Counted from the stretch's first letter, positions 33,934 to 63,910 are shown. The stretch is DNA of 64,000 nucleotides from an uncultured virus (IMG/VR IMGVR_UViG_3300030060_005500) (IMGVR_UViG_3300030060_005500), one strand, 5' to 3'. A program made the numbers and translations. The notes: generated by a model from the sequence alone, not told the origin.

Positions 33934-33967
33934 GATAATTACCTCTAAAACTTTATTCTAATTAATT

Positions 33968-44978: not shown

Positions 44979-45025
44979 AGTTGTGTGAAATTACTTTTCT
45001 AAAATTCTACGATTACTTAATTTTA

Positions 45026-47673: not shown

Positions 47674-48298
47674 TGTATTCTTGGGTGATTTTAACTCCTC
47701 GAGGTAGGACACCTGAGTTCTTATGGGTTTTGCGAAGCTCATCTAAATTAGGAATAAGAGTTGTCTTGGGTTTTGATTTGGAAGTGTATTGGTCATAGAT
47801 CTCGCCTGACATTGAGCGTAGCACCGTTTCTTTGGTAGTGTTTACTTCTTGTTGTAAACAAAACTTCTCCTTTTCCTCATCAGACCACTGATTAACGTCA
47901 GAAGATATCTCCACCGTTAAATCATTGTTCTTTACCATTGTAAATTGATAATTCTTACCGGTAAGTTTTGGTGATTTTTCAGAGAAAGGAATAGTCCTTA
48001 CTAACCAGCTTAACAGCTTTTTTATACTCTTTACATTATTTTCAGCTTTCTTCTTCTCACTCTCGAGCATTTCTTTTTCTGTCTTTATCTTTTCGAGAAT
48101 AGTTTCATTGGCTGTCAATGCATGATAGATGCTGTCTATCTTTTTACATTTATGCTTCAGGCAGTCGTCATAATCTGCCTGAGTGATCTCTATTATCTCT
48201 TTGTCACCAGAGCTTCTGGCTTTTGTAAGAGCAATAGCTTCTCTATATAGATCAATTGTAGTTAGATCTTTGTATGAGTTAGTTTGAGTTACTGTCAT
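47576..48298 (-). CDS. Siphovirus Gp157-like protein
   Basis: KIDSI...coiled coil...LKKLL, PNLDELR...LPRGV architecture. Confidence 0.65.
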   Translation of the reverse strand: MTVTQTNSYKDLTTIDLYREAIALTKARSSGDKEIIEITQADYDDCLKHKCKKIDSIYHALTANETILEKIKTEKEMLESEKKKAENNVKSIKKLLSWLVRTIPFSEKSPKLTGKNYQFTMVKNNDLTVEISSDVNQWSDEEKEKFCLQQEVNTTKETVLRSMSGEIYDQYTSKSKPKTTLIPNLDELRKTHKNSGVLPRGVKITQEYNARRKRIVGLDMETSLHTRDLLPEITCPEGSD

Positions 48299-48300: not shown

Positions 48301-48420
48301 TTATGCAGGTTGGATGAATGATTGAATGTTTGTGATGGCGAAAGTGATTACAGCTACAGCTGCAGCAATAAGAATGTCCTTCAACAAGGGAAGGACGGAA
48401 GTCACGATTGATTCGAGCAT
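48301..48420 (-). CDS. Small hydrophobic peptide (39 aa; missed by ORF track)
   Basis: MLESIVTSVLPLLKDILIAAAVAVITFAITNIQSFIQPA. Confidence 0.55.
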   Translation of the reverse strand: MLESIVTSVLPLLKDILIAAAVAVITFAITNIQSFIQPA

Positions 48421-48449
48421 TTAATTAAAATTGAGTTAGATGTTTTAGG

Positions 48450-48492
48450 TATGGGACTTACAGAGTTAACCGGACTTTTTCTCCAGCCCATA
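48450..48492 (-). ncRNA. Candidate cis-RNA motif copy B (UGGG-hairpin-UGUAAGU-CCCA)
   Basis: UAUGGG-CUG-GAG...CUC-UGUAAGU-CCCAUA. Confidence 0.55.
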
Positions 48493-48495
48493 TGA

Positions 48496-48693
48496 TTACT
48501 GGTTGGATTTCTTTTTCATCTCTCTTGCTATGTGATCACTTAAAACCTTGAGAGCATATTCATCAATATGCATTTTCTTCTTAGCAGAAAGTATGGTTAG
48601 ATTCCAGAATTGATCTTCATTAAAATCAAGGACAGTCCCTTGAAATATTTCTCTGTCCTGTATGGAGGTGATTGTAGTGTCGTTGAGTTTCAT
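48496..48693 (-). CDS. Small hypothetical protein
   Basis: TAATG-coupled start MKLNDTT. Confidence 0.5.
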   Translation of the reverse strand: MKLNDTTITSIQDREIFQGTVLDFNEDQFWNLTILSAKKKMHIDEYALKVLSDHIAREMKKKSNQ

Positions 48694-49694
48694 TAGAAAA
48701 ATTGTGCTATTTGAGATAAGGATGAACCGGTGTAGTAGGTGTAACCGTTGTTTACCATACTGGTGAACAGTGGCCATACATCTTCTTCTGTAAAATTCTG
48801 GTCTGGTTTATACCATCTCCAGTCTCTTGCAGGAGCCATGTACCCAGATTTGGTATACAAAAGCTTGAACTGGCCAGGCATACCAACCTGTTTCGGTGGT
48901 GTATAACCCCAAGCTGCTGCTTGTTTTGGCATCTTGCCCGGAGCTTCTTCGTGCAGTTTAGTGCGTAATCCAGATATGTGTCTAAATTTACGAATCCAAG
49001 ACAAATGCTTACAACCGATACGGTAGTATTTAATCTCCTTTTTATATTGAGAGATGCAGCGTAGTTGTTTTTGGAATGAAGGACAGGAACACCAAGGCTC
49101 TGGTTCCTTCTCCTCTACATCCTCTAATTCATCTTCATCCACATCCTCTTTAAACGGAGTCATAAGATCTATTTCTTTACTTGCGTCGTTCCTGCCATCA
49201 GGAGCTATTACATAACCAAGATCACATTCCTCAAACGGTAGTTTAAAAGGTTTAAGCACCTCTTCATCATGTAGTTTGCAATTGATCTTAGCTGTAGGCT
49301 GAATCAATGCCTGTAACCCATCTATGTATGGAATCTTATGTACACCTTTCTTTATGCACCACTCTTGTAATGCAACTAGATTCTTACGTTGTGGGTATTC
49401 ATATTTCCACCCTTTCCATAAAACATAGCAGTTCTCTCGCCAAGGGGTAAGAGCACTGCCGGTAGGTGATAGATATTCGAAGTAATTAGGAACTCTGTTT
49501 GTAAATTTTACAAACTCTTCCTGTATTGGTTTCGGATCTAATCTGGTCTTATCGTTGATAACGATCTTACCATTCTTCTTGCGTATATCTTTTATAGACA
49601 TTGCATCTATATCTGGATATGCACGAGCGATATTTGACTTGGAATAAATACAAGTCTGAGCTTCGTTGAGCTCCTTCTGAGTTGTAGTTGACAT
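48693..49694 (-). CDS. SWIM Zn-finger protein
   Basis: WCSCPSF...GCKHL. Confidence 0.65.
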   Translation of the reverse strand: MSTTTQKELNEAQTCIYSKSNIARAYPDIDAMSIKDIRKKNGKIVINDKTRLDPKPIQEEFVKFTNRVPNYFEYLSPTGSALTPWRENCYVLWKGWKYEYPQRKNLVALQEWCIKKGVHKIPYIDGLQALIQPTAKINCKLHDEEVLKPFKLPFEECDLGYVIAPDGRNDASKEIDLMTPFKEDVDEDELEDVEEKEPEPWCSCPSFQKQLRCISQYKKEIKYYRIGCKHLSWIRKFRHISGLRTKLHEEAPGKMPKQAAAWGYTPPKQVGMPGQFKLLYTKSGYMAPARDWRWYKPDQNFTEEDVWPLFTSMVNNGYTYYTGSSLSQIAQFF

Positions 49695-49706
49695 TGTTGA
49701 GTTGAA

Positions 49707-49904
49707 TTAGATAAAGAGATCGTAATGATCATCCCTTAATTTAGCATTTTGCTTGGCTTTTTTATATACAGATTTACCTAAACGATAGGTTCCGTAACCT
49801 AATACTCCCCAAGCTAGGGGTGTACCTACACAGTACAGAAGTGCAGTACCTAATAATCCATAGGTGCCTACTTTTTTTGCTGTTGATTGATGACGCTTCT
49901 TCAT
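49707..49904 (-). CDS. Small membrane protein
   Basis: 65 aa with hydrophobic hairpin. Confidence 0.5.
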   Translation of the reverse strand: MKKRHQSTAKKVGTYGLLGTALLYCVGTPLAWGVLGYGTYRLGKSVYKKAKQNAKLRDDHYDLFI

Positions 49905-49907
49905 AGT

Positions 49908-49938
49908 AAAAAGGCGACCTTGCTTTCGCAGATCGCCA
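49908..49938 (-). terminator. Terminator-like hairpin
   Basis: GGCGATC-TGC-GAAA-GCA-A-GGTCGCC-TTTTT. Confidence 0.7.
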
Positions 49939-49958
49939 TGTAACTTTCTGTTTTTATT

Positions 49959-50951
49959 TTACAGGGATGCATCTTCACCGGTAGGTAAAGCAGGGATTGT
50001 TTCTCTGCTTGCGGGAAGTATTTCTACATTTTCAGCCATTCCATATTGACCGCCTAATTTGGCAGCATCAGCTCTGGAATGTTGATTGATGTAGTCACCA
50101 TACATGTCTTGAAACTTCCATGCCTTTTCACGTTCTTCATCAGGAACAGTAAGAGCATCTAACGACTCTACCGCTTCTTCCTGTGTTCCGTAGTTAGGCA
50201 TGTCGAATGATTCAACTGCACATAGATCCACATTGTTTTCACCACGCATGTCTTCGATTAAAGAAGGAGTGAATATAGTAGTGGAATGAAACTTCTCATT
50301 GTAGTTTATCGGTATCTCTGAATCGAGAGCTTTTGATAAACACTTGTTCATCTCTTTCTCAAACGTCTTTAGATGTTCGGAAAGATCAGCACCATTCAAA
50401 CCTTTTAGTGTCAGACAGATGGGAACTTCATGGGCAGGTTTATTATCCTTTGTAAGAATGTTTATCAGATATTTGGTTCTGACTTGATACTTACGTTTGT
50501 ACAATTCACCTTTACTTCTGGCTAGATCAGCAGCCACTTTGTCGTCATCGAATTTAGATTTACATACTTCGTCATCCCAAGTGCCAATGATCTGCTTCAT
50601 GTTGTCAGTTTCTTCTATCATCAAAGGAGATTTAAGAAGTATCTGTACTCTTGGCATTACGAAGTTTAATCCATATTCAATGCTTGTTCTGGGTGGTCTA
50701 CCAAAGCTGTGCTTGTAATTCCAAAGAACAGAACCTTCTTCAAAATCAGATTCTTTGGCTGTCCATTTGCATGAATCTAATTCAGACATACGTATGAACC
50801 AGCCTACTCTTTTTGATTTGTTTAAAGGTTGAATTGATACTGGAGCCTGATAGCTCTGAACAAATTCTTTTTGTTTGAACACCGCAAAGGATGAGATGTC
50901 TCTGCTCTTTGTAATTTCGGAGCTTTTTTCGGTTTTTGTGCGAGTAATCAT
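49959..50951 (-). CDS. DUF5895-like protein
   Basis: GWFI, PRVQIL..SPL, TKYL..L...NKPAHEVP..LTLKG..GA. Confidence 0.55.
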   Translation of the reverse strand: MITRTKTEKSSEITKSRDISSFAVFKQKEFVQSYQAPVSIQPLNKSKRVGWFIRMSELDSCKWTAKESDFEEGSVLWNYKHSFGRPPRTSIEYGLNFVMPRVQILLKSPLMIEETDNMKQIIGTWDDEVCKSKFDDDKVAADLARSKGELYKRKYQVRTKYLINILTKDNKPAHEVPICLTLKGLNGADLSEHLKTFEKEMNKCLSKALDSEIPINYNEKFHSTTIFTPSLIEDMRGENNVDLCAVESFDMPNYGTQEEAVESLDALTVPDEEREKAWKFQDMYGDYINQHSRADAAKLGGQYGMAENVEILPASRETIPALPTGEDASL

Positions 50952-50983
50952 CGTGATAGTTTCGGAGATTGAATCATTTTAAT

Positions 50984-51829
50984 TTAAAAAGGAGGATCTT
51001 CACCCTCAGGTGCGGAACTGGGAACATTTGCAGCGGCTGTTGGCTGTGCATTTGTATCTCCCCATGCGGAACCTACTTGATCTAAACCAGGTAGTCCGCC
51101 TATTGCAGGACCACTGTCATCCTGTTGGTTACCCCATAAACTCTCTGGTTCAGTGTTACTGGCCAAACTGTTCTTAGGTTCTATCTCATCAGGGGCAGAT
51201 TGTGTCTTGGGACCAAGAGTCATCTGTATCAGCTGAATCTTAGTCTGCGATCTGTCCTCTCCTGTATTCTTGTCTTTCCATTTGTCAGTCAGTAAACGAC
51301 CTTGAACTGTAAGACCAACACCTTTTCTGGTGAAGTTAAGTAGAAGTTCAGCAAGTTTGTTGCGATCTTCTGTTGAATTGATGGCATAGAAGTTAAAGAT
51401 ATCTGACTGGTTTCTGCCTGTGTTTACACTCAGACTCTGATTACATATCATCAGACCAGACGGAGTAACCTTGTAGTCTCTGTCATCGTTTCTGTTTATA
51501 TTCTTTATACAGCGACCACTTAGGATGACTGTATTGAAAACAGGAAAGTATTCATGGCTAACAGTTCCGAAGTTGCCGCCTTCCAATCGAAACTCTCTAG
51601 TGTCGATGTCATAACGGAGTTTAGAACCATGTAGATAGATCTGATGACCAGCTTTAAGATTAGCTAGTTGATCTACCTGTTTTCCATAAACTGTGAGTTG
51701 TATTTTTGTAGGTGCTTTGTTTCCTATTGGAGGAAGCATCACCGTACATGTTGCGTTTGAAGATGACTCACTTGTGTAAACCCTTTTAGGATCATCAGCA
51801 AGTTGAGCACATAAGAAAGCTAAGTTCAT
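50984..51829 (-). CDS. ssb: Single-stranded DNA-binding protein (tandem OB folds)
   Basis: NTVILSGR, KGVGLTVQGRL..DKWKDK..GEDRS, acidic tail EDPPF. Confidence 0.85.
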   Translation of the reverse strand: MNLAFLCAQLADDPKRVYTSESSSNATCTVMLPPIGNKAPTKIQLTVYGKQVDQLANLKAGHQIYLHGSKLRYDIDTREFRLEGGNFGTVSHEYFPVFNTVILSGRCIKNINRNDDRDYKVTPSGLMICNQSLSVNTGRNQSDIFNFYAINSTEDRNKLAELLLNFTRKGVGLTVQGRLLTDKWKDKNTGEDRSQTKIQLIQMTLGPKTQSAPDEIEPKNSLASNTEPESLWGNQQDDSGPAIGGLPGLDQVGSAWGDTNAQPTAAANVPSSAPEGEDPPF

Positions 51830-51850
51830 AAAATTAGTAGCTATGTGAAA

Positions 51851-51877
51851 GGCAGTTTAATGTCTTACCAGGGACAA
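51851..51877 (-). ncRNA. Compact H-type pseudoknot in ssb leader
   Basis: UGUC-CCU-GGUA-A-GACA-UUAAAC-UGCC. Confidence 0.5.
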
Positions 51878-51881
51878 GTAA

Positions 51882-53750
51882 TTAATGTGTATCAGCCCAG
51901 TTGGAACCGATCTTTGAATCGCCTTCGATCTTGCATTTAAAACCGAAGAAATCCTGTGCTTCCGGAAAAGCATTTAAGGCTTGTTCATTTATTTTATCTG
52001 TATATTTAGGATTGCAAGCCAGCTGTACTTCATCATGTATCATTAGCATCTGGAACCAGTCACGACCGTACTCCAAACCTAAGTTATCTTTGATGTTTCT
52101 ATTTATATTGATCACTACCTGCTTCATAAGTATTGCTCCAGCTGACTGAAGTAATACATTTAATCCTTTGAATGCGGATCTGCAGTGCAGTGAACGTCTG
52201 TCCAATCCAATAAGGAAGCCACGGGTTGCAATAGTTTCTTCTACTTGATCTTTGAGTTTGCGTAATGCAGGAACTCCTCTAAGGAAACCATCAATCGCAT
52301 TCCGACCTAACACCCTCAACTTCTCCTCACTCTTCTCCTTAGGATCTATAATCGTGCCAGCCTTCGCCGCCCCACACCCGTAAAGCATGGCATACAGTAG
52401 ACGTTTGGCTATATCTCTGGTGGCAACACCGAACTTCTCTTGGTTGTAGGTGTGAATATCTATCTCTGGATTGACAACCAGTGAAGCATACTCACCGTCA
52501 TCCCATAAAGCTAGATAACCAGCCAGTGTTCGTATCTCTAATCCCTTTGCATCTATACCGAGTTGATCCCAGTCATAGGGTGCATGGAATAAGGATCTAC
52601 ATTCTTTACCGTATGGTGAATAAGATGCCACTACCTGTCCGAGATTGGGAGATTTATGTGAACATCTAGCAGTGATACACCCGTTGGTGATCACGTTGCC
52701 GTGCATTCTGCCTGTCTGATTGTTAACCATCTTCAACCAAGCATTCTTGCCGTCCGCTATCTGCCCTAATCTCTTCTTGACTAGCATGTATTCCGCCAGT
52801 TGCTTAGCTTCTGGGAAAGGTAACTGCTCGAGGACATCATCGTCAAGTATTGGATTTCCTTTATCAGTTGTTTTCTTTGGGGTCCATCCGTACTTTTGTT
52901 GTAGACGTTCCACAATTTGTTGACGTGATCCAGGATTGAATTGCTCATACCTAATTTTTTCGAAGGGGACATCTTTTACGTAACCTCTTTTTGTGTTGTT
53001 TACTTTGGGAGTGAACCACTCAGAGTATTTTACAGGAGGAAAGATCTCCTTCAGTTCCCCTTCCAGTCTTTCTTGCTTTGCTCGTAGAACATCCACGAGA
53101 TCAATAGCTCCATCAATATCAAATGGAACTCCTGCTCTAATCTGTTTGTTAATGTAGTAAGCAAATTCATGTTCAATGGCTAACGAAGGTTGCGGATAAT
53201 TTTGTTTAACTATGTGAAGTAATAATTTCTTTGTTACGTTCACGTCCTGAACACAATATTCAAGCATCTCTTCTGTGTATTGTGAAAAGTCCTTGAAGTC
53301 TATTTTGTGATCAGCTAAACGATAGCCCCATGCTTTTAATGAGGCTGATCCTTTTAGTCTGGGAGGAACATTCCTTGTGGATGAATAATCCAGTTCAGTT
53401 AGTTTCTCCTTTGGCCATATCAACCTCGTGCATACAAGAGTATCTATGACCTTACAGTTGAAGCTAGTGCCATATAATTTGGTCAACAACGGTATGTCAT
53501 AAAACATAATATTGTGACCAATTAATGTATCAGCAGATGCTAAATGTTCTAGTGCTTCAGTTATACTTTCAGGACCATATCTATACGTCTTATCTAACAC
53601 TAAATCATGACAAACTATGCAGTAGACCTGCGTAGCATCATCATAAAGTCCGTCTGATTCTAAGTCGAATATCAACCATGTTTCATCTTTGGTATCGGGC
53701 TGCAGGTTGAACCTCAAGGTTTTTACTGGCGAGGGCGGGATCGTTTTCAT
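51882..53750 (-). CDS. polA: Family A DNA polymerase (3'-5' exo + pol, T7-like)
   Basis: FDLESD, GHNIMFYD, YCVQDV, DAKGLEIR, AKRLLYAMLYG, HDE. Confidence 0.95.
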   Translation of the reverse strand: MKTIPPSPVKTLRFNLQPDTKDETWLIFDLESDGLYDDATQVYCIVCHDLVLDKTYRYGPESITEALEHLASADTLIGHNIMFYDIPLLTKLYGTSFNCKVIDTLVCTRLIWPKEKLTELDYSSTRNVPPRLKGSASLKAWGYRLADHKIDFKDFSQYTEEMLEYCVQDVNVTKKLLLHIVKQNYPQPSLAIEHEFAYYINKQIRAGVPFDIDGAIDLVDVLRAKQERLEGELKEIFPPVKYSEWFTPKVNNTKRGYVKDVPFEKIRYEQFNPGSRQQIVERLQQKYGWTPKKTTDKGNPILDDDVLEQLPFPEAKQLAEYMLVKKRLGQIADGKNAWLKMVNNQTGRMHGNVITNGCITARCSHKSPNLGQVVASYSPYGKECRSLFHAPYDWDQLGIDAKGLEIRTLAGYLALWDDGEYASLVVNPEIDIHTYNQEKFGVATRDIAKRLLYAMLYGCGAAKAGTIIDPKEKSEEKLRVLGRNAIDGFLRGVPALRKLKDQVEETIATRGFLIGLDRRSLHCRSAFKGLNVLLQSAGAILMKQVVININRNIKDNLGLEYGRDWFQMLMIHDEVQLACNPKYTDKINEQALNAFPEAQDFFGFKCKIEGDSKIGSNWADTH

Positions 53751-53916
53751 TAATCCAGTTTAAAATTGAAAGTGCGTTTGTGTTGTGTGGTGGTGCGAAT
53801 ACTCTGTTTAAATCATGTTGGTTTTTTATTGGTGTTAATTCAAAACATTTCTTCTCCATATTTGTTTTAATACAATAGATAGTGCCATCAATCTCCGTAG
53901 AAATTACATATGTCAT
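53683..53916 (-). CDS. Hypothetical protein
   Basis: MTYVIS..., 77 aa. Confidence 0.5.
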   Translation of the reverse strand: MTYVISTEIDGTIYCIKTNMEKKCFELTPIKNQHDLNRVFAPPHNTNALSILNWINENDPALASKNLEVQPAARYQR

Positions 53917-54165
53917 CAGTTTAAATATCACATAGATAAATGATAATTTAAACTAACGAATTAGCAATAGTTTGTATTACTTTTTGTAGTTAATCGTCCT
54001 GCCATTCTGGATACTTTTCATCGGCTAAATCTGTTAAGTTTATCCAATGTAATTTATCTTCAGAACAGGCAATTAGATCTTCTACTGGTGCTTCATCATC
54101 GTTATGAATATCAACGTTGGTGATGCTTTTAACTTTAGTCATCAGGTTTCTCCTGTTGTATACAA

Positions 54166-54942
54166 TTACTTTTTACCATAACCAACAAAGCCCCCTTCTT
54201 TCTTACGTTGTGCAATTGCCGCACTTGCATCAGAGCCAGCCGGTTGACTGCCATGAACTAGCAGTGCAAAAGGTTTGTCACCAAAACAATGAGAATCATC
54301 GTGGTCAATCTCCAGTCCACGTTCTTCGGCTTCTTGTTCGGTATACACTACATAGCAGACACGTTTGTACAGCTCGGGAAATTTATGAATCATACGATCT
54401 TCATCACCACCATAAGATGCAGTGAGATAGAAGTTGTCAGGTATCTCATTCTGTAGGTTGTACCACATTGTCAGAGACTTGGTGTAGGCATAGAACTTCT
54501 GGTGTGGACGTTCCCTAGCTGTCAACATCCAAGCTTTCATGTAATGTTGATCCCAGAAGTCACCTGATGCATGGATACGTATCATGTCCCGTTGTGGCTG
54601 TGCTTGCAATGAAGCTAAGATGAGATCTTTGATACCTAGATAATATTTAGTTGGATCATTTACTGATCGATCTACATAAATATTTCTGGCTGCTTTGAGT
54701 TGATCGAAGTTGTACCATCTGGCATTACGAACTGTAGGAAGTCTTGCCTCTTCCATAGCTGCATAGCAGCGGTACTCCGGAGATTCACTACAACCATGTG
54801 GGTTGTCCATGATCTTACCGGTAGCACGATTGGCAAATGTGTGGCACTTACCAGCATGAGGACAGGTGTAACCTGCCGGAATAGAAAAGATAAGGGTATC
54901 TACCAACTTGGCATTACCCTTACTGAATTTAAGAAGATCCAT
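54166..54942 (-). CDS. Gp88-family (radical-SAM-like) phage protein
   Basis: GNAKL, FSIPAGYTCP...C, CYA, IRIHASGDF, FYAYTK. Confidence 0.8.
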   Translation of the reverse strand: MDLLKFSKGNAKLVDTLIFSIPAGYTCPHAGKCHTFANRATGKIMDNPHGCSESPEYRCYAAMEEARLPTVRNARWYNFDQLKAARNIYVDRSVNDPTKYYLGIKDLILASLQAQPQRDMIRIHASGDFWDQHYMKAWMLTARERPHQKFYAYTKSLTMWYNLQNEIPDNFYLTASYGGDEDRMIHKFPELYKRVCYVVYTEQEAEERGLEIDHDDSHCFGDKPFALLVHGSQPAGSDASAAIAQRKKEGGFVGYGKK

Positions 54943-54946
54943 ACTT

Positions 54947-55231
54947 TTAATAAATCACAGGAGCTAAAGTTTCTCCACCTTTGGGAGGATTGGAGATGTA
55001 CAGGGCACCTCCATCATTACCTTCATCATCCATCTGGGGAATCAAAGCCTGTCCATCATTTAATTCGATAATGATAGGAGCTTTGTACCATCCCTCCAGT
55101 TCTTGAGTAGCCATGTATCTGACATTGAGGATGGTTTTTCCAACCAGTTGTTTGCGTAATTTCTCAGCCCATTCGTTTTTGAGTTTGTACTGAGGATCAT
55201 CTTCTAATTGGATTAGCTTTTCTTTAGCCAT
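54947..55231 (-). CDS. Hypothetical phage protein
   Basis: LVGKTI..VRY...DDEGNDGGAL. Confidence 0.65.
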   Translation of the reverse strand: MAKEKLIQLEDDPQYKLKNEWAEKLRKQLVGKTILNVRYMATQELEGWYKAPIIIELNDGQALIPQMDDEGNDGGALYISNPPKGGETLAPVIY

Positions 55232-55262
55232 GGTTTTAAATTGAATTGAATTGAATTAGTGA

Positions 55263-55841
55263 TTAACCCCACTGATCTGCCATTGCATCAGCGATACCCT
55301 GAAAGGTACGGGAGCGTATCTTCCAGCGATCCTTTGATGGGGGCAGATAGTGAAGACGTTGTCTTTGTTTGTCAGGTAAACCTGAGACATCTATGTATTT
55401 AGTGCCTACTAATTTAGGTAAACCCTTCAACCAAAAACCTGTTTTCTTTTGTTCGGCATGACCAAACTCGTATGGTTGTACATACTGTGTGGCCTTGCCA
55501 AGTTTTGATCTGGAAGACAGAGCACCGACAGGATTCTCGATACAAATCCTCGGACACTCTGAATCCCATATCGTCTCAACGAACTTAATAGCTGCGGGCT
55601 GTCTGCCGTCTGCTACCTTTTCAGCCCATCGAGCTGCACCACTTACGGATAAATGAGTGCAGGGTGGATGAGCTATGATCAGATCCCAGCCATCATTAAG
55701 AATTGGAAGTACATCTCCTTCTATATGTTTCTTGCTGGGTTGTTCTGTGGGAAGAAGGTCGCATGACCAGGCGTCGTGTCCTTTAGCTTTGAAAGCATTG
55801 CGAACAATACCTGAATATTCACAAGCTACTAAGACTTTCAT
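55263..55841 (-). CDS. C5-cytosine DNA methyltransferase-like protein
   Basis: MKVLVACEYSG, AHPPC (motif IV), IENPV (motif VI). Confidence 0.8.
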   Translation of the reverse strand: MKVLVACEYSGIVRNAFKAKGHDAWSCDLLPTEQPSKKHIEGDVLPILNDGWDLIIAHPPCTHLSVSGAARWAEKVADGRQPAAIKFVETIWDSECPRICIENPVGALSSRSKLGKATQYVQPYEFGHAEQKKTGFWLKGLPKLVGTKYIDVSGLPDKQRQRLHYLPPSKDRWKIRSRTFQGIADAMADQWG

Positions 55842-55902
55842 TCGTTTAGAAAATAGATATCTAAATAATAGATTCATTGTTTCTAGTAAGATGTAAAGAA
55901 AA

Positions 55903-55918
55903 TGTAACAAGTGTTACA
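55903..55918. promoter_or_regulatory. NtcA-type palindrome
   Basis: TGTA-ACAAGTGT-TACA = GTA-N8-TAC. Confidence 0.6.
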
Positions 55919-55980
55919 GCGTGAACTACAGTTTCTTGAGAAAGGTATTAATATGATTTAGTAACAACCGATACCAAATC

Positions 55981-56061
55981 ATGACCCAACTTGTATATCG
56001 TGGCATTCCCTACACAATTGGTGGGAAAAACACAAAAGACACAAAAAAAGCCCCAAATTAA
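55981..56061 (+). CDS. 26-aa YRG peptide (DUF4278-like; missed by ORF track)
   Basis: MTQLVYRGIPYTIGGKNTKDTKKAPN; LxYRGxxY motif; own -10 candidates and terminator. Confidence 0.7.
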   Translation: MTQLVYRGIPYTIGGKNTKDTKKAPN

Positions 56062-56078
56062 TCGGGGCATTTTATTTT
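56043..56078. terminator. Bidirectional terminator
   Basis: A-run, GCCCC-AAATTAATC-GGGGC, T-rich tail. Confidence 0.7.
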
Positions 56079-56436
56079 AAGCAGCTGGTTGAGTTTCTAT
56101 TACTTCACCAGCATTGGCTTCCTCCATCTTGTTCATCATGTTCTGTGCGATTTCAGCACGACGTGATGTCTCTTCAAAGAAAGTTTGAGCCTTGTCAGCA
56201 CCGCAGGTATGTTCGGTGCCATTGGCTGTTACAAACTTCCAACTACCATCTGGTTGAAGTGTACCGTTAGTTAGAGCAAGTTTTTCGCTGTTACGTACAT
56301 AACGTAGACTTACATTATGACGATCGGTAAGACCCAAGTCGTCAACAAAAGTGACACCAACATTGTAATTGCGGTCTTCACCAAGAAACGCATGGGGTTG
56401 TGGAATAAATGGCTTGATTGCGGATAAGAATTGCAT
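56077..56436 (-). CDS. Hypothetical protein
   Basis: Likely start MQFLSAIK. Confidence 0.6.
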   Translation of the reverse strand: MQFLSAIKPFIPQPHAFLGEDRNYNVGVTFVDDLGLTDRHNVSLRYVRNSEKLALTNGTLQPDGSWKFVTANGTEHTCGADKAQTFFEETSRRAEIAQNMMNKMEEANAGEVIETQPAA

Positions 56437-56467
56437 AGCATTTGATTTAATTTTTAATGTGCACAAA

Positions 56468-56500
56468 CTGGGGATAGACTTACATCTAACGAAAGCCCAG
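56468..56500 (-). ncRNA. Candidate cis-RNA motif copy C
   Basis: CUGGG-CUU-UC(GUUA)GA-UGUAAGU-CUAUC-CCCAG. Confidence 0.45.
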
Positions 56501-56553
56501 ACGAATCATATACTCTAATTTTTATATCTCTTAAACTTATAAACGAAGCAAGC

Positions 56554-57734
56554 TTACCAACTGTTTGAATAATATCTGTGTCCATGTGATTCTCGTTTAC
56601 TATCTAAAGAATTACGATTACGTTCTTTTGCAGATATTGGAGGTTCTCCTCCTGTGTTGTCGTATAAATATTGAGGAGTAGGATCTATGTTAAAGGGATC
56701 ATGATAATCATCGTAATCATCCCCACATTCATCCCACCAAGTATTGATGAGATCAACGTCTTCTGCACTAATTGCATTAGGCATCTCCTCTGGTTTATCA
56801 GCAAAGTAATTGTGATACCATTCTTGAAATTCATCGATCAGATCTTTGTGTACATCATTCTGTTCACATAATTCTTTTGCTTGTTCGTAGCAATGATCTT
56901 TGAATAATTGATTTTCAAAATCTACGTCCATCTGACGCATGACTTGATCTGGTAGTGGATTGTCAATTTCGTTGTAGTTAGTCATCATAACCTGGAATGA
57001 ATTGTCTAGGAGGGCATGTAGGATAACCAGTATCTGGTTCATCTATTGTGGTTTCAATATTATTTTTATCTACATAATCAGCTAATTTTTTAACTATATT
57101 TTTAAAGTCTCTTTCTTCTTCTTTATTGAACTCAGATGCTTGCTGTTCACAGCAATACAATATGAGATCATGTTCGTTTTTAGTTAATAAATTCATTGTG
57201 CTCTGTCCCAAAAACGTTTTTGTGCTCTCTTCGCAGCGACATGTTCTGTCTGTGCATTAGTAAGTTTTGGAAATCGTTTTTGAACCTTTTCTATTTCTTC
57301 TTCGAAGAAGTAGAGTACCAGTTCAGTGTTGCCGTTATGACTCATTGGGTACCTCCCGTTGTCTGTTTTGATTTGTTTTGATGTGTTGGTCTAGTATTTT
57401 GTTGTAGACTTTCACGAGTTTAGGATTGTCTTTTGCAGAATCACCCGAGATCAAAAAACGATCCAAATGATTCTCCAACACTCCCAACTCTTCTCCCGTA
57501 AACCTAATAGCGTATTTAGACATCTTCATCTTCTTTCACTAGGTATGAAGAACGTAAGTTAGACCAGTCCCTTTCTATGAAAGGTTGCTTGTGTCCTTTG
57601 TGTTTCATCTCGTTGTACACGTATTCTTCGAAGCCTTCGAGAGATGGTTTGGTACCATTGTCTTCACAATGCTGTACGTATTCATGGGGCTCAAAGTATA
57701 CTGTTGCCTTGAGAGGGATTAAGTTGATAGCCAT
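56554..57734 (-). other. Cluster of five small, coupled early hypothetical genes
   Basis: ORFs approx. 57516-57734, 57335-57529, 57193-57345, 56978-57196, 56554-56988 with overlapping stop/start codons. Confidence 0.6.
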
Positions 57735-57799
57735 TTTGATAATAGATAGAAGTAATAAAAAACTGCCAAGATACAGGCAAGTGCCATTAAAGATTCCAT

Positions 57800-58927
57800 T
57801 TAAGTTTCCTCTTTAATTAAATCTACTTGCTTATGTCCTTTGATGAAAGTAGGTTTGAACCATTTCATGGTTCTTTGTTTCCTACCTGGCCCTTGCAGGA
57901 TTGTATGCCAGTGTCCTCTTCTCCAATGAGATCTCTTTGGACTACAGCCCTGAGGTTCACTGCTGCTTGTTTTGGATTCAACCACTCTGGTGGTAAAGTG
58001 TTCTCCAAGCCAATGCACGTTGGGTACATTGTTAATCTTTTCAGAACCAAAGCCTTTGTTATTGGTTGCTGTGTAGTTAGATGTAGGACTTTGAACAGTA
58101 ATGATCTCAGGTTGCTGAGTCATAAGACAGAGTAAGTTAATTACAAAACGATATGGTATATTTAAATCTTTTATAAATTCATTTATTATTTCTTCTGCTT
58201 GTTTATGTTTTATAACTGGAATTCTAAATTTCACTTGACCTTTATTAGATAAAGAAGCTACACCTTTACCAACAAATTCATCAGTAACAGCATGAGCATC
58301 ATCTCTTGCGATTAAGTGAGATGATTTCATAACTTGAAAGTAATTATATTCTAATAAGTTTTTATGAAAATGTTCCCGTGTGTCACAGAACATACAGTGA
58401 CCATCACCTTTAAAAGGTATGAAAAATTTTACAGGAATATCAAGACCTAAATTTGGTACCACTCGTCTGTAATACACATCAACTGTTATGCCCTCACTAT
58501 TTTGAGACATACTTATTGTGTGGTATTTATCAAACTTTTTAGAGAATGTAACTTCAATTGAAGGTAGCACTTCGAGGTTGAGCTCCATGTGTTTAGGTGG
58601 CTCTGTTTGTATTAAAGAGTTAGCTAGATCATCAGTGATGTAATAGGTAGGACAAAGAAAGCCTTTTCCAAAGCCTTGCCCTACATACTGACCACCACTC
58701 TTATTTTTAATAGCGGTATTTACAACTTCAGAATTGAATTGATACATAGACATCCCTTTCTCAATTAAAAGAGCCTGATGAGAAGGATATCCATAGGGAG
58801 CTATTTCTTTATCGTAAAGAGTAATGGCTTCTTCTTTGGATAAATGATGTTCACTATTCTTAAGTTGTTTGTTTATTACTTCAACTATTCTGAGAAACAA
58901 CTGTTTGTTTTTTGACAATGTTTTCAT
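57800..58927 (-). CDS. Phage protein with C-terminal HWRRGHW motif
   Basis: KRSHWRRGHWH...WFKPTF. Confidence 0.65.
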   Translation of the reverse strand: MKTLSKNKQLFLRIVEVINKQLKNSEHHLSKEEAITLYDKEIAPYGYPSHQALLIEKGMSMYQFNSEVVNTAIKNKSGGQYVGQGFGKGFLCPTYYITDDLANSLIQTEPPKHMELNLEVLPSIEVTFSKKFDKYHTISMSQNSEGITVDVYYRRVVPNLGLDIPVKFFIPFKGDGHCMFCDTREHFHKNLLEYNYFQVMKSSHLIARDDAHAVTDEFVGKGVASLSNKGQVKFRIPVIKHKQAEEIINEFIKDLNIPYRFVINLLCLMTQQPEIITVQSPTSNYTATNNKGFGSEKINNVPNVHWLGEHFTTRVVESKTSSSEPQGCSPKRSHWRRGHWHTILQGPGRKQRTMKWFKPTFIKGHKQVDLIKEET

Positions 58928-59799
58928 TTGGATACCTCCGCTTTGATTAGATCGTCAATTTGTTTGTCGATATTCTCTTTGAGAAACTCAAGAGTTTTTA
59001 TGTAGTCCTCTGGATAGAAACAGGTAATGTCTGCTTCATTGTGCATGGTTAATACTTTGAGTATGAACTCTAGGATTGATTGTGCTTTAGGCATTAGTAA
59101 CCTCCTCTGTTGTAGGTTTGCATGGCTTGGGTCTCCCTGAGACTTGGTCGTCTTGAATAAGACTTCTTCTGTTGGTTTAGATTCTTCAATGCCTTTTGAG
59201 ATTCGGCAATGATACCTAATTCCCATTCTGCTTCTTGTTTGATGGTCATGGCTAATTCAGGATTACCAGAATGCTTTTTCCATTTGTTCTGTAATGATTT
59301 AACTTCTCTTTCTTTTTCAGATAAAAGAGATTCAATGTATGCAATGAATTGTTTGTCCATTAGTTTTGTTCCTCATACTTTTGTTTAATCATTCCTATGG
59401 CTAGTTCATAAGAACAATCTTTATCAGACATATATTCATACTCTTCACCGAATAGAATAGTCATGATTTCGTCAACGAATTGTGATTGATTCATTAGTTT
59501 TTCTCCTCGTCTGTTAAAAGAAATTCCATTTCGGAATCTTTGATTTCTGTGCTGTATCTAGGACCAACTAACTCAAACTTTTTAAATAGTTCAGCCATCT
59601 TCTTTTCATTAGTCATGCACTCTTCCGCATCTTTCATGCAGATAAGTTTGAATTTAAGTGCAAGATGTTCACCTATGATGGTACATTGATCCTCAACATC
59701 ATTTTCGATAGTCTTGACTAACTCTTTATCTTTTGTGACTACAGACTTACATAAAGCCATGGTTACAGATGTTCTGATTTCTTCGATTGTCATGGTCAT
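58924..59799 (-). other. Cluster of four small coupled hypothetical genes
   Basis: 59494-59799, 59360-59494, 59094-59360, 58924-59094 with TAATG/ATGA junctions. Confidence 0.6.
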
Positions 59800-62003
59800 G
59801 AGTTTTGTTCCTCTGGTTGTAGTTGAGTTGTAATTAATTGAAGGGCACGTCCGATACCGTGCTCTACAAATTGTTTCTCTTCATCGTTCAATCTTTTGTT
59901 AGCTATGTCAGCTATCTGATCTACGAGAAGAGTGCCGTCACTTAGCTTGAGCTGAATGGTAAACCTGGGTTTCTGGTCAACCATCGCCAAGACAATGAAG
60001 TAACGTTTCTGTTTAATGGAGTTTGCATAGCTGGAGTTACCGACGCAGTTACGTACGGCTCTACCCCAGTCAGCCAACTGGTGTGATGTTATTGGTTGGA
60101 AGAAGGTCATGACTGAATCTTCTTTCTCAGACCACATAGATTTACCACTGTTAACTTCTTGAGTAATGGTGGTTCCATAGCGACCCCTAGTAGCTTGATA
60201 AAGCTCATTGTCAGCAAATGCTTCTTTCCATTTAACTTTGATAGGCTTGGCAAATAGATCCTGTGGCAAATTAAAGTTCTCGTTGTTCTCTTTCCATTGC
60301 ATTCCCATTACATGGTCATGCAGTTCAGTCAAACGCCAACGACGTGGAGAATCTAGTTTCCTTAGCTTTGGTTTGGGTTCTAATTTATCCCATCTTTCAA
60401 TTACTTCATGCTGTGATCTGACAACAGAATCGAGCATGTTTACAGTGTCTGTCCATTCTCTGAAATCCCAGACTTTTCTACTCATGCGAGTTTCATAATC
60501 ATAGGAACTGTAACTAGTGTTTTCTTCTGCTTCTTTAGCACGTTGTTCACTGTACTTCTTCATAGACTCTAGAAAAGTTTTTACAGGCATACGACCGAAG
60601 TATTCTCTTTTCTTGGAAGCAATCTCCCGTACTTTCTCTTCAGTACTAGCATAACGATAGTAACCAATGTCATTCATGCGGGATGGTACGCTTAGAGTAT
60701 AGAAGTATTGTTCATAACTCTGAAAATAATCAACAGGAGTATCTGGCCAGACATCCAATATATAGTCGATCCATCTAATCAGATGATGTACACGTTCAAT
60801 GGGAGATGTAACCCAATGCATGCTTTTTTTCTCGGATTCTTCCAATCTTTTGTTAGCAGATTCAAGTGCCTTGTGTAACATCTTTCTAAAGAAAGGTTGC
60901 TCTATCCAACCATCAGGTTTCCATAGAACATGACCGATGTTATGTCTGCGTTCATTAAGATCAAGAGGAACAGTATTGCTCAAACGAAACAGTAAAGACT
61001 TGAGACTTTCCACATCCCATTTCTTTGTTGTTTCTAGACAGAGATAACCTTTGCGGTCAGCGTCATGAGCATTCATCCAGTTGGCCTGTTTTTCCTCATA
61101 GTTCTTCTTGATCACATAACCTAAGGTGTTCTGTTCAGGAAGAATACGATTGAATAATTCACTGTAAGAAGGATCACTGCTACTTCCATACTTTTCTGAT
61201 TCGGGACTGACCCAGTGAGGTATGGTGCCAGCCAAGCATCTTCCCCAGTCTTTTAGCTCTGATTTCAAGTATCTTGACTTGTCATGCCAAGTTTCTATAG
61301 TTCTGTGATGGAATATGCCATTGGTAAGGTTGTAAGTATGTCCCTGCCCGATCATTTGTTTGGTTACATACACTGTCTTGTAACGCCACCAAGATCTATC
61401 TACCTTTATACGTTCACAATCATTCCAGCTGTAACCTGAGAATAATTTTGGATCCTCATTATCAACGTACTGTCGGTGGTATGGAACACAAAAGACTTTG
61501 CGATTTTCACCATCAGCATACATCTCACATTCGAAACGAGTTCTGTTTGCTTTAGTTTCCTTGTAAGCAAAACTGTAACCATATACATATTTATTGCTAT
61601 GTGGTATCCATAGACATGTCCACATGCCTTCGAAATGATACAGAAGTATTCTTCGCTGTATTCTCATTCCCTGAGAGTTGTGTATCAACTTATCAGATTT
61701 TTGAAATGTCAGAGGTTTACCGTTGGGGTATGCCGGATTACCATCTTTATCATTGGGAGGATACTGTGTATTTATATATCTTTGATTAAGGTCACTGAGA
61801 CTGATTCTTTTAATCAGCTCTTCTCTATTGAAATTCTTTGGCAGTACATCGTTCGGAATCAATTGCTCCAATGGAGGAAGACCAAGAGAAAAAGGTTTAG
61901 ACTGTCGTCTGATTACTCTTTTCTTCTCTGATTCTTTTGCACGACGCACCTGATCATAAGGTGTGAGTTTCTCTTGCAAGACACTCGGAAGTTGAAATTC
62001 CAT
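59796..62003 (-). CDS. Large protein with C-terminal PcfJ-like domain
   Basis: LTELHD, LADWGRAVRNCVG..SYA, FTIQL...VDQI. Confidence 0.7.
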   Translation of the reverse strand: MEFQLPSVLQEKLTPYDQVRRAKESEKKRVIRRQSKPFSLGLPPLEQLIPNDVLPKNFNREELIKRISLSDLNQRYINTQYPPNDKDGNPAYPNGKPLTFQKSDKLIHNSQGMRIQRRILLYHFEGMWTCLWIPHSNKYVYGYSFAYKETKANRTRFECEMYADGENRKVFCVPYHRQYVDNEDPKLFSGYSWNDCERIKVDRSWWRYKTVYVTKQMIGQGHTYNLTNGIFHHRTIETWHDKSRYLKSELKDWGRCLAGTIPHWVSPESEKYGSSSDPSYSELFNRILPEQNTLGYVIKKNYEEKQANWMNAHDADRKGYLCLETTKKWDVESLKSLLFRLSNTVPLDLNERRHNIGHVLWKPDGWIEQPFFRKMLHKALESANKRLEESEKKSMHWVTSPIERVHHLIRWIDYILDVWPDTPVDYFQSYEQYFYTLSVPSRMNDIGYYRYASTEEKVREIASKKREYFGRMPVKTFLESMKKYSEQRAKEAEENTSYSSYDYETRMSRKVWDFREWTDTVNMLDSVVRSQHEVIERWDKLEPKPKLRKLDSPRRWRLTELHDHVMGMQWKENNENFNLPQDLFAKPIKVKWKEAFADNELYQATRGRYGTTITQEVNSGKSMWSEKEDSVMTFFQPITSHQLADWGRAVRNCVGNSSYANSIKQKRYFIVLAMVDQKPRFTIQLKLSDGTLLVDQIADIANKRLNDEEKQFVEHGIGRALQLITTQLQPEEQNS

Positions 62004-62030
62004 GGCAAATTGTAAGTTGAGTTGAATTAT

Positions 62031-62054
62031 CTGCGTGTAGGATACGCAGCCCCC
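62031..62054 (-). promoter_or_regulatory. Leader hairpin
   Basis: GGGGG-CUGCGU-AUCCUAC-ACGCAG, 27 nt before ATG 62003. Confidence 0.45.
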
Positions 62055-62078
62055 ATAAGATAAAAACTATCTACACAC

Positions 62079-62414
62079 TCAAAGCTTCTCTTCCTTAAAC
62101 ATGATACCAGGAGAGACTTCTTCGTAACCTTCTTTCAAAGGGTCAGGTTTACGATTACGTTTGGGCATCTCCACAGGTAGCAAGCGATGTTGCATATGTC
62201 TGGTACCGGATGCGGAACCTGAGTCATCCCATTTTACAGAATAATAATAGTCGACTCTGCCATTGGCTTGAGTACGTTTGTCAACAGATTCGACGATACC
62301 GTAACGTGGTTTGTAAGACTTATTCAGCATACGTTCCTGTGGTATGCTCGGCGTCTTCTTGAGTACACGATCACCTATCTGGTAACGTTGACCAACTTTC
62401 TTGTAATTAGGCAT
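62079..62414 (-). CDS. Hypothetical protein (SH3-like fold possible)
   Basis: YQIGDRV...YGIV...YYSVKWD; start MPNYKK. Confidence 0.55.
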   Translation of the reverse strand: MPNYKKVGQRYQIGDRVLKKTPSIPQERMLNKSYKPRYGIVESVDKRTQANGRVDYYYSVKWDDSGSASGTRHMQHRLLPVEMPKRNRKPDPLKEGYEEVSPGIMFKEEKL

Positions 62415-62709
62415 CAGGTTTCTTTTCCTCCTTTGGTTCTGTTTTAGGTTTAGATTGTTCTTTGCTGTGCAAAGTGTATTGTTTTGACAGGCCAGTGCCG
62501 GATACAGACGTAAGACCCTGTACTGTCTGTTTGTGTAGGTTGTAGTTGATATTGCTCTGCAGCTTGCCAAGTTTGCCTTGAGCTGTAATAGATTCAATAC
62601 CATGACTCATAGAAAGATTGACTTTGACATCACCCAGTCCGAATGGAAGTTTGATGATGGGTACTCTTTTCTTGAATCGAAAACCTTTAGTAGGTCTGTC
62701 TTTAGCCAT
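62407..62709 (-). CDS. DUF4236-like protein
   Basis: GFRFKKRV...VKVNLS..G...GTGLS. Confidence 0.55.
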   Translation of the reverse strand: MAKDRPTKGFRFKKRVPIIKLPFGLGDVKVNLSMSHGIESITAQGKLGKLQSNINYNLHKQTVQGLTSVSGTGLSKQYTLHSKEQSKPKTEPKEEKKPDA

Positions 62710-62953
62710 TGGGTTCCTCTGGTTTGTGGTCATCAGGTAGGAGGTTGTCTGTAAGAGATGATAGGTCTACGCCGTCGGGTAAGTTGTCCATCTGGAACAA
62801 CTCCCCCGTCTTCTCGTCATAGTATCCTCCTACAAACCCCATTCCTTTCTGATCCGCAAACTCTTTCATCTTGGCAACCAGCTGCATCCTCTTGAGCCTG
62901 TTGTGATCAATGGCATCGGGTATGCGTGGCTTGTTGTCTTTGCCTTTAGTCAT
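62702..62953 (-). CDS. Hypothetical protein
   Basis: 83-aa ORF. Confidence 0.55.
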   Translation of the reverse strand: MTKGKDNKPRIPDAIDHNRLKRMQLVAKMKEFADQKGMGFVGGYYDEKTGELFQMDNLPDGVDLSSLTDNLLPDDHKPEEPNG

Positions 62954-63177
62954 TGGGTTTACCTCTGGGTTGTTGTAAGCGTTTGAATTTGAATTCGTTG
63001 GTGATACCAGGTGCTAGTACAATGCTGACGACCACAGCATCATCTTTGATAAACACACTGGCATGACTTGGATTTGAGAAATCGTATTGCTGATGTTCAG
63101 ACTTTGTATCCTTCATTAATTATAAAAAACAATAGGAGAATAGTACAGAAAAAATTCAGTGATTTCTACCTATGTTT

Positions 63178-63402
63178 TCATATGGAAGTAAAAGATTTCC
63201 TTTCGTAATAATCAGTCATTTTCTCCTTGAAATCCTTTACTGAGACACACGAAGAAACCAACACGAAATCCATGGTGATCCATGAATTACCTCTGAGTTT
63301 TTGATACTCAAGAGTGTAAGGTTTCTTACTGGGTACATGCATTACTCTGTCGGGTGTGTTATTTTCCCGAGGGTAATACCAAGGTCGAATAGTAGGTGCC
63401 AT
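63178..63402 (-). CDS. Hypothetical protein
   Basis: Start MAPTIRP (63402). Confidence 0.5.
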   Translation of the reverse strand: MAPTIRPWYYPRENNTPDRVMHVPSKKPYTLEYQKLRGNSWITMDFVLVSSCVSVKDFKEKMTDYYERKSFTSI

Positions 63403-63429
63403 AAAAATGTATGTAGTTTGAATAAGAAA

Positions 63430-63471
63430 CTGGGACTTACAGATGATGTTTGGGGTCATCAGCATGCCCAG
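63430..63471 (-). ncRNA. Candidate cis-RNA motif copy A
   Basis: CUGGG-CAUGCU-GAUGA(loop)UCAUC-UGUAAGU-CCCAG. Confidence 0.55.
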
Positions 63472-63478
63472 CTAGTAG

Positions 63479-63910
63479 TTACCAAGAGCAGTAGTACAGT
63501 ATTCTCATGCCTTTCTTGAGTTCTTCTTCAGCTTTGTCGCAGAACTCGATGTCGTTTTCTCTGTAGTATTCATCTGAGGGATCACCCCAGAAAAAACCAG
63601 AGGCATCTCCATAGCCTCCATTGAGAGTCTGGTTCTTGATATCCAATCGTAATCTTTGGATGTCTTCAGCCTTCAGTTCTACGATTTCATCATTGAATGG
63701 ATCTTGCATGTATGACTGAGCCTGATAGCCTTCTCCTGTATGTGGATCAGGCTTGGCAGCATCACCATACTGACGTTTTCTCCATAGACGTTCCATCCAG
63801 CCCTGTAGGTTTGGATGTTTACGCCAGTAGTAAAGTTCTTTGTCTTTTTCCCAATCAATTGTGTTGGTGGTACCAGCTGATCGAGAAAAAGCATACTGGT
63901 CTAGTCCCAT
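63479..63910 (-). CDS. Conserved phage protein
   Basis: MGLDQY...YWRKHPNLQGWM...GFFWG...YYCSW. Confidence 0.75.
   Translation of the reverse strand: MGLDQYAFSRSAGTTNTIDWEKDKELYYWRKHPNLQGWMERLWRKRQYGDAAKPDPHTGEGYQAQSYMQDPFNDEIVELKAEDIQRLRLDIKNQTLNGGYGDASGFFWGDPSDEYYRENDIEFCDKAEEELKKGMRILYYCSW

Follow-up and report, generated by a model that had tools for sequence, protein, structure and literature searches.

The window analyzed here is a stretch of 64,000 nucleotides (nt) from the uncultured virus IMGVR_UViG_3300030060_005500 of the IMG/VR database, and it carries three copies of a small intergenic hairpin motif on the - strand. Among its genes are psbA, a family-A DNA polymerase, SSB, a PrimPol/D5 primase-helicase, a lysozyme, three tail-fibre-like genes and several auxiliary metabolic genes. 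The polymerase shared 62% identity with its counterpart in Synechococcus phage S-EIVl (79 kb), and its next relatives reached about 42%. The window was therefore treated as an uncultured marine member of the S-EIV1 lineage, and no near-identical record was found among 50,697 deposited phages. The three copies of the motif lie within a leftward block (- strand) of small early and replication genes, and their coordinates and those of the neighboring features are collected in Table 1.

The original prediction described a closing stem, a C, an inner hairpin of unrelated sequence and an invariant UGUAAGU in each copy. The sequences were re-read, and all three copies were found on the - strand at the predicted places, with the closing stems CUGGG/CCCAG, CUGGG/CCCAG and UAUGGG/CCCAUA. 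The start codons at 63402, 56436 and 48420, which had been named together with them, begin 27, 31, and 29 nt after the stems of copies 1, 2, and 3, respectively. The sequence UGUAAGUC was common to the three copies. Copy 2 is deviant, since its conserved A is changed to U and five additional bases, CUAUC (56477-56473), follow the UAAGU; it also occurs in the related locus L001 with one loop base different. A strain variant of copy 1, with changes at 63462 and 63464, was seen in the near-identical IMG/VR contig L071 and in RNA-library contigs, and these two base changes in the inner hairpin turn its stem of 5 base pairs (bp) into a 7-bp stem. The sigma-70-like site upstream of copy 2 has a predicted transcription start at about 56498-56500, which is the 5' base of that copy.

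Table 1. Positions of the motif copies, the features around them and the other elements discussed in the text (ORF, open reading frame; aa, amino acids; tRNA, transfer RNA).
Feature	Position	Strand	Remark
Copy 1	63428-63473	-	core CUGGG/CCCAG, extendable to 7 pairs
Copy 1, outer stem	A63473-G63467 with C63434-U63428	-	sequence read
Copy 1, closing pair	C63466 with G63436 (or G63440)	-	GUAA = 63440-63437
Copy 1, one-base bulge and inner hairpin	U63435; 63441-63465	-	
Copy 2	56468-56500	-	outer stem C56500-G56496 with C56472-G56468
Copy 3	48450-48492	-	outer stem U48492-G48487 with C48455-A48450
Copy 3, core	GUAA 48461-48458, then G48457, U48456	-	conserved A changed to U
Leader, copy 1 to ATG 63402	63403-63427	-	G-free
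Leader, copy 2 to ATG 56436	56437-56467	-	
Leader, copy 3 to ATG 48420	48421-48449	-	G-free
74-aa ORF behind copy 1	63178-63402	-	no known family
119-aa ORF behind copy 2	56077-56436	-	no known family
39-aa ORF behind copy 3	48301-48420	-	followed directly by a 240-aa ORF, 47576-48298
Terminator-like hairpin with U run	56050-56068	-	closes the 119-aa gene behind copy 2
Sigma-70-like site	56505-56534	-	TTAAGA, 18 nt, TATGAT; consensus match only
Large early protein, 735 aa	59796-62003	-	C-terminal PcfJ-like domain; counterpart in S-EIVl at 36999-38756
1017-aa ORF	10864-13917	+	structural block, just behind an HNH gene
Auxiliary genes	7382-8506 (+), 33496-35659 (-), 43319-43882 (-), 29296-29754 (-)		Pfam/PHROGs
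Three fibre-like genes	21597-23973, 24256-26817, 44643-46834		endosialidase-chaperone domain (Peptidase_S74)
71-88-aa acidic ORF	L040:6617-6835, L046:3779-4045, eight more loci	+ (both named)	…DPRNEDDYD.W.YG.E.LP.DHTW…SPSEPE
Glutamine-II aptamers	L002 8411-8464, L004 8866-8917, L016 8633-8683, L018 5941-5995	opposite to polymerase strand	

To compare the motif across the lineage, 48 IMG/VR loci (L001-L048) were gathered via the polymerase, 45 of them at 59-100% identity and three at 36-38%. A simple expression search of these relatives gave 30 further copies, all on the polymerase strand, and TGTAAGTCCC was found 34 times on that strand and never on the opposite one. A covariance model was then built from 20 short copies of the relatives and searched against the window, the 48 loci and the whole S-EIVl genome. 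It gave 119 matches at E <= 1 in 1,009,421 bases, and 118 of them were on the gene (polymerase) strand; the strand bias that the original prediction had proposed to look for with such a model is thus present. In the window itself, with the filters off, the three sites took ranks 1-3 of 19, with 28.1 bits for copy 1 (E 1e-6), 15.0 bits for copy 3 and 9.7 bits for copy 2, whose E value of 1.4 would be insufficient alone. Simple patterns were also counted in the window: TGTAAGT by itself was not enriched (12 observed vs 12.9 expected), and TGTAAGTC was weakly enriched (5 observed vs 2.5 expected, with at least 5 in 16 of 100 shuffles). The composite TGGGC-N5-35-TGTAAGT occurred 3 times vs 0.16 expected, a number reached in 0 of 100 shuffles, although this figure is flattering because the pattern came from these same copies.

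The number of copies varied widely among the relatives. S-EIVl carries two good copies, at about 40.72-40.79 kb and 41.43-41.48 kb of its record, the three complete relatives carry 1, 3, and 1, and another record carries 6. In a clade at about 60% polymerase identity there were up to nine or ten copies per 20 kb, spaced one to four genes apart. When IMG/VR was scanned with an exact pattern, at least 142 stretches on at least 118 contigs were found, with at least 89 distinct motif sequences. Of 35 loci with a homologue of the gene that follows copy 2, 10 had the motif upstream of it, and the homologues of the genes behind copy 3 always lacked it. From this comparison of loci, the element is gained and lost junction by junction and is not bound to particular genes.

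The fold was supported by the variation among the copies. In one pair of the outer stem, GC was found 68 times, AU 25, UA 13, and GU 4 times, with no unpaired case, and in the next pair CG was found 100 times, AU 6, UA 2, and GC once. The covariation score of the outer stem, counted per sequence, was reached by 0 of 500 shuffles, and when the partner was slid by one column the paired share fell from 79% to about 45% or less. Since the covarying columns abut invariant anchors, misalignment of the stem is unlikely. The outer stem has 5-10 bp (5-7 bp in 184 of 209 distinct copies). The inner segment has 10-63 nt, commonly 13 nt, and usually forms a 4-bp stem with a GNRA- or UNCG-like loop; the apical loops are ordinary and variable. 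The inner segments were more stably folded than their own shuffles, with a median z of -1.41 and 65 of 165 below -2.

Between the two helices, the C described in the original prediction most likely pairs with the G of UAAG rather than with the preceding G, as judged from the alignment. This pairing gave CG 106 times and UG once with no unpaired case, and the alternative register, with the G before UAA, gave CG 96 times, UG once and 10 unpaired. RNAalifold without constraint also picked the G of UAAG, and in the tRNA-linked copies of L012 and L013 both bases of the closing pair were changed together, to U with A. The predicted stem and inner hairpin therefore stand, and the single-stranded part is probably shorter than the predicted UGUAAGU because the C pairs with the G of UAAG. 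The core is, in the aligned sequences, GG-C-A on the 5' side and R-U-A-A-G-N-CC on the 3' side. Read in order, the comparative fold is an outer stem, a one-base bulge (mostly U) with a C-G pair, an A opposite the RUAA loop, and a variable inner hairpin. The likeness to a T-loop that had been suggested was not borne out. A T-loop is a five-base U-N-N-N-A unit in which the first U and the fifth A are conserved, and the first U of UGUAA here is variable (U 112, C 35, G 11, A 7 in 165 distinct inner segments).

The sense strand was more stable than the antisense strand in 56 of 95 copies, and the reverse held in 36 (p 0.004). Among the copies there were 96 G-U pairs vs 2 A/C oppositions, which argues that it is the sense strand that folds. 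Together with the covariation of the outer stem and the strand bias of the model matches, this agrees with the selection at the RNA level that the original prediction had suggested.

The position of the element relative to genes was examined in the best matches. An ATG-led ORF was found within 150 nt in 89 of these 90 matches, as expected for an element placed just 5' of genes, and 81 of them had the ATG 7-33 nt behind the stem (median 24), with 14-33 nt for the majority of copies. On the other side, the gap to the preceding stop codon was 0-121 nt, and 0-8 nt in 40 of 80 copies with an assignable stop. It is loose, with extra spacer upstream, and the element is therefore tightly coupled to the downstream gene. 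The leaders behind the element contained 4.7% G and no Shine-Dalgarno sequence. They are built of YUCAA repeats (139 distinct leaders in the loci; in the window, for example, 55232-55262 and 63403-63427), and CTCAA, TCAAC, ATTCA, and ACTCA were each 4-5 times commoner in them than in shuffles. This YUCAA-rich, G-poor leader may be the translation-initiation signal of the lineage.

The most conserved location of the element was not in front of an ORF. A gene for tRNA-Leu(UAA) was found near the polymerase in 34 of the 48 related loci, and in 28 of these 34 the motif core ended 4-7 nt upstream of it; in the window there is no tRNA gene. Three relatives carry a plain hairpin with a U run in place of the element. 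At this site the element occupies the last approximately 18 codons of a conserved acidic ORF of 71-88 aa with no Pfam family, whose stop codon ends 10 nt inside the tRNA gene, so that message and tRNA overlap. The changes in inner-hairpin length at the tRNA site were multiples of three. The small regulon of early genes named in the original prediction is thus too narrow a description, since the element also stands before a tRNA gene and a capsid gene and comes and goes with the junction.

Beyond the lineage, single copies with the same core were found in several unrelated phage settings. In contigs related to Synechococcus phage S-CBWM1 (capsid protein 64% identical), a copy lies 42-47 nt before the major capsid gene, and S-CBWM1 itself has none. 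A GC-rich phage contig with a portal gene has another copy, and one was found in another cyanophage contig between an exonuclease gene and a RecT-like gene. A narrow 20-base pattern had 3 exact matches in 596 Gb of cellular genomes, all in prophage-like contigs of metagenome-assembled genomes of Clostridia, and in two of these contigs the copy stands beside integrase or Cro/CI-type genes. The covariance model gave weak matches in 2 of 151 sampled Clostridia genomes, and blastn with two of the copies against cultured phages gave nothing beyond chance. A tblastn search of the window ORFs against five motif-bearing contigs (G001-G005) and four Clostridia stretches, mostly fragments, yielded no protein common to all motif-bearing contigs. 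The only such contig sharing genes with the window (8) was G005, another cyanophage.

The motif was compared with the RNA families of Rfam 15. At the gathering threshold there were 0 matches in the window, twister-sister, pistol, hatchet, and hammerhead included, and in 106,376 bases of five relatives the only matches were 5 tRNAs and 4 Glutamine-II riboswitches. The original prediction had recognized no named family either. At E <= 10, the region around copy 3 gave two chance-level rows, a microRNA and a small RNA, and the region around the best-scoring copy (L016 4520-4680) gave only PsrR1, with E 1.1, over the stem and U run. The resemblance to twister-sister loops drawn in the original prediction was not supported: around these two copies, neither this model nor any other ribozyme model matched even at E <= 10. 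Literature searches on cyanophage intergenic stem-loops and RNase and on phage RNA motifs yielded no published description of the motif. On good comparative support from the sequences, the motif is real, widespread and absent from the Rfam 15 catalogue.

Several other identities were tried and rejected. Over the 70 nt that precede the element, 213 distinct copies showed no conserved box (<=0.29 bit), and the element is therefore not an ordinary promoter; sigma-70-like matches in the region 44.1-64 kb numbered 41 vs 56.8 in shuffles. For a pseudoknot between loop and leader, ACTTA, the complement of the loop, was counted 19 times in the leaders vs 10 expected, with no clear partner, and YUCAA words were enriched instead. 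A strict pattern for a coremin-like module, as given in PMC10520033, had 0 matches in the window and L001-L050.

RNA contigs were available as Logan contigs from four marine metatranscriptome runs of one study, in which stretches without contig cover carry no information. Copy 1 was spanned by the contigs X1 63352-63672 and X2 63349-63574, and the hairpin is therefore present inside longer molecules of the RNA library. Around copy 2, the contig X1 56150-56500 ends exactly at the 5' base of the copy. The bin with the gene behind it (56052-56715) had a depth of 4.1-6.0 in all four runs and was the most evenly covered stretch, and the bin just upstream had a depth of 0-1.3. Another RNA contig starts, with three unmatched letters, at the G before the UAAGU of copy 3. 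The contigs at copy 2 hint weakly that an abundant message can begin with the hairpin.

Other features of the window and its relatives were also recorded. The leftward block seems to be generally punctuated by hairpins. Further intergenic hairpins on the - strand were seen at 49905-49958, 55911-56076, 33221-33495, and 62004-62078, and some of them are terminator-like, a stem with a U run, and stop within a few bases of the next ATG, as in GGCGATC…GGTCGCC-UUUUU-ACU-ATG at 49905-49958. A different hairpin precedes the ATG at 62003. Glutamine-II riboswitch aptamers (RF01704, 40-49 bits) were found in four relatives on the strand opposite to the polymerase, and nothing in the window reached the Rfam threshold for this family. 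The auxiliary set comprises psbA, S-adenosylmethionine decarboxylase, a glycosyltransferase, a mannose-6-phosphate-isomerase-type cupin, a ferritin-like protein and a cytidylyltransferase. A DUF7936 gene follows two of the three Peptidase_S74 fibre-like genes, with one such pair per strand.

The 1017-aa protein encoded in the structural block had 70-91% identity in most of 120 homologues, among the matches listed, and this conservation exceeds that of the DNA polymerase. Many residues are invariant, including D293, D294, and D296. It had no Pfam, PHROG or PDB match, and S-EIVl was the only cultured phage with a homologue. From its sequence, the protein looks enzyme-like.

Taking the fold, the strand bias and the placement together, we tentatively propose, at slightly less than an even chance, that the motif is a sense-strand RNA boundary element, which would define and protect RNA ends at the cistron boundaries of a polycistronic phage transcript. 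In this model, the downstream RNA would begin with the hairpin, either because a long transcript is cut in the single-stranded, A/U-rich stretch next to the element or because a transcript starts just before it. In this place the hairpin could shield the downstream RNA from 5'-end-dependent decay by host RNase E or RNase J. If the cut fell behind the hairpin, the hairpin would be the 3' terminus of the upstream RNA and would block 3' exonucleases. The invariant loop might be the determinant for an end-setting nuclease or factor, or part of a compact fold that is hard to unwind.

A number of points weigh against this proposal. Protection alone does not account for the invariant loop, since a plain hairpin would suffice for it, and the partner that a loop pseudoknot would need was not found in the leaders (ACTTA, 19 vs 10 expected). 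At the most conserved location, the 5' end of a tRNA is set by RNase P anyway, and cutting there would leave the overlapping message without a stop codon, since the stop codon of its ORF lies inside the tRNA. Two RNA contigs read straight through copy 1, and the contigs as such cannot show ends or strand and may include DNA carry-over. The covariation was counted per sequence and not per evolutionary event, in an alignment (A2) fitted to the model. The end-setting nuclease or factor itself is putative.

Lying between invariant G-C pairs, the invariant loop resembles hairpins bound by proteins or by polymerase, and the element could be a docking hairpin for a trans-acting factor that changes expression without cutting, either a put-like antiterminator in the nascent RNA that lets RNA polymerase pass terminators or an operator for an RNA-binding protein of host or phage. 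We consider this unlikely. The put RNAs of HK022 act without a phage protein, and the same core in unrelated phages, for which no shared phage protein was found, would fit a universal partner such as RNA polymerase. One Clostridia copy stands in an early leader between divergent Cro/CI-type genes, and terminator-like hairpins follow some copies, such as that at 56050-56068 behind copy 2. Hairpin-binding helix-turn-helix proteins of phages, with targets in 5' leaders, are described in PMC13551039 and would be a precedent. A translational operator, however, cannot account for the copy abutting the tRNA gene, and antitermination requires neither tight placement before genes nor up to about ten copies in 20 kb. 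The put RNAs have two hairpins in about 70 nt, whereas the short forms here are single hairpins of 31-45 nt, and the docking partner is putative. That the element acts alone, without a protein partner, as a compact fold stopping the host 5'-to-3' exoribonuclease RNase J or as a minimal self-cleaving RNA, appears distinctly unlikely to us. If true, it would account for the retention of one and the same dozen bases in phages of cyanobacteria and of Clostridia without a shared protein, and also for the constant place at the 5' edge of the RNA to be kept. A new class of small self-cleaving ribozyme, cutting the polycistronic RNA at or beside the internal loop, is most improbable when considered specifically. 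In its favor, about a dozen invariant bases cluster where two helices meet and the hairpin at the periphery varies freely, the core is kept in phages for which no common protein was found, a cut before ORFs and a tRNA would be useful, and the RNA contig at copy 3 begins, with its three unmatched letters, at the G before UAAGU. On the other hand, the known ribozyme families had no match even at E <= 10, the 1 x 4 internal loop with a one-base bulge is simpler than any natural self-cleaving class known to us, two contigs cross copy 1 intact, and the loop region of copy 2 tolerates a five-base insertion.

A hairpin acting at the DNA level, extruded or single-stranded, could be an N4-like promoter of an unrecognized phage RNA polymerase or a signal for priming by the PrimPol-D5 primase on the lagging-strand template; the place just before genes and the tRNA is promoter-like, the phage encodes the primase-helicase, and the very conserved 1017-aa protein has no assigned function. 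We regard this as quite improbable. N4-type promoters have a short-stemmed hairpin with a 3-nt loop, formed by the template strand. Here the sense strand folds better (56 vs 36), with frequent G-U (G-T in DNA) and rare A/C oppositions, while the N4 polymerase reads the template strand, and the inner part is 10-63 nt long; these features speak against an N4-type promoter. The hairpin itself is included in RNA contigs, and phages with which the window has neither replication nor transcription genes in common carry the same core. No phage RNA polymerase was found by Pfam/PHROGs in the window or S-EIVl, by PDB sequence and profile searches or in the protein atlas, with about 20 kb of the genome lying outside the window, and the host polymerase is therefore the default, which is not proof. 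PF00940 was also without a match in three complete relatives and in S-EIVl, which says little since the control genomes were matchless too. That the copies are a family of intrinsic transcription terminators and nothing else is hardly credible. Their stems are GC-rich, at least 5 T occur within 8 nt after the stem in 41 of 209 distinct copies, the sole weak Rfam alignment is to a terminator part, and a plain hairpin with a U run substitutes for the element before the tRNA in three relatives. But the U tract is missing in 168 of the 209 copies, the loop is invariant and terminators do not need it, and the downstream genes and tRNA have no room for a promoter of their own.

Post-transcriptional gene expression in phages is poorly known outside T4, T7, and lambda, and the widespread S-EIV1 cyanophage lineage is a blank in this respect. 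The element offers a short RNA signal with a defined fold and an invariant loop, which these phages use again at many boundaries between genes and which unrelated phages have exchanged. Should it set or protect RNA ends, it would show how these phages divide long transcripts into a tRNA and messages that are each tuned on their own, with leaders that are not of the Shine-Dalgarno type. It would then also serve annotators as a marker of true gene starts and could be a compact insulator or stabilizer part for cyanobacterial engineering. If the loop acts alone, as a nuclease roadblock or a ribozyme, it would represent a new class of functional RNA, and a roadblock to RNase J would be the first of its kind known from DNA phages and bacteria, comparable with the exonuclease-resistant RNAs (xrRNAs) of RNA viruses.

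The xrRNAs of flaviviruses and plant viruses, coremin included, resemble the element as small folds of conserved sequence 5' of an RNA that is kept. In bioRxiv 10.1101/262683 and PMC10520033 they are described as protein-independent and conserved across unrelated viruses, and as requiring either a pseudoknot ring or, in the coremin type, a 4-bp hairpin whose loop is YGAD, then a conserved spacer and another hairpin. The element differs from them, since no pseudoknot partner was found and the strict coremin pattern given there had 0 matches in the window and L001-L050. For a stalling of a 5'-to-3' exonuclease at the edge of the fold, the RNA contig ending at the 5' base of copy 2 gives a weak hint.

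Among bacteriophages, the RNase III sites of T7 (R0.3, R0.5, R1, R1.1, and R1.3) and of the Bacillus phage SP82 are closely comparable. They are several related hairpins with internal loops per genome, their place is intercistronic in a long phage transcript, a short way ahead of the following start codon, and they leave hairpins at RNA ends, as is proposed for the element. The intercistronic position in a polycistronic phage transcript is shared with the T7 type. RNase III needs approximately two helical turns (roughly 20 bp), whereas the short forms of the element, with about 6-8 + 4 bp, stay well under this, and the loop of the element is invariant across unrelated phages. The 5' stabilizer hairpins of the ompA leader, SP82, and ermC in B. 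subtilis likewise have a 5' stem followed by an unstructured leader, and one RNA contig ends at the 5' base of copy 2. In contrast to the element, they need no conserved sequence, and most copies of the element lie inside transcripts directly after a stop codon.

The HK022 put RNAs and the lambdoid nut/boxB sites are cis-acting hairpins of the nascent RNA with conserved unpaired bases in early transcripts, and in this they are like the element. The put sites consist of two stem-loops of about 70 nt and occur twice per genome, just behind the early promoters, whereas the element is a single hairpin that occurs in up to about ten copies per 20 kb and abuts a tRNA. Similar to the element, the PeSL cassettes of T4-type phages are repeated intergenic stem-loops that are gained and lost at the seams of small early gene cassettes. 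The PeSLs, however, carry a sigma-70 early promoter, whereas the element has no conserved promoter box and its conserved part is the fold itself.

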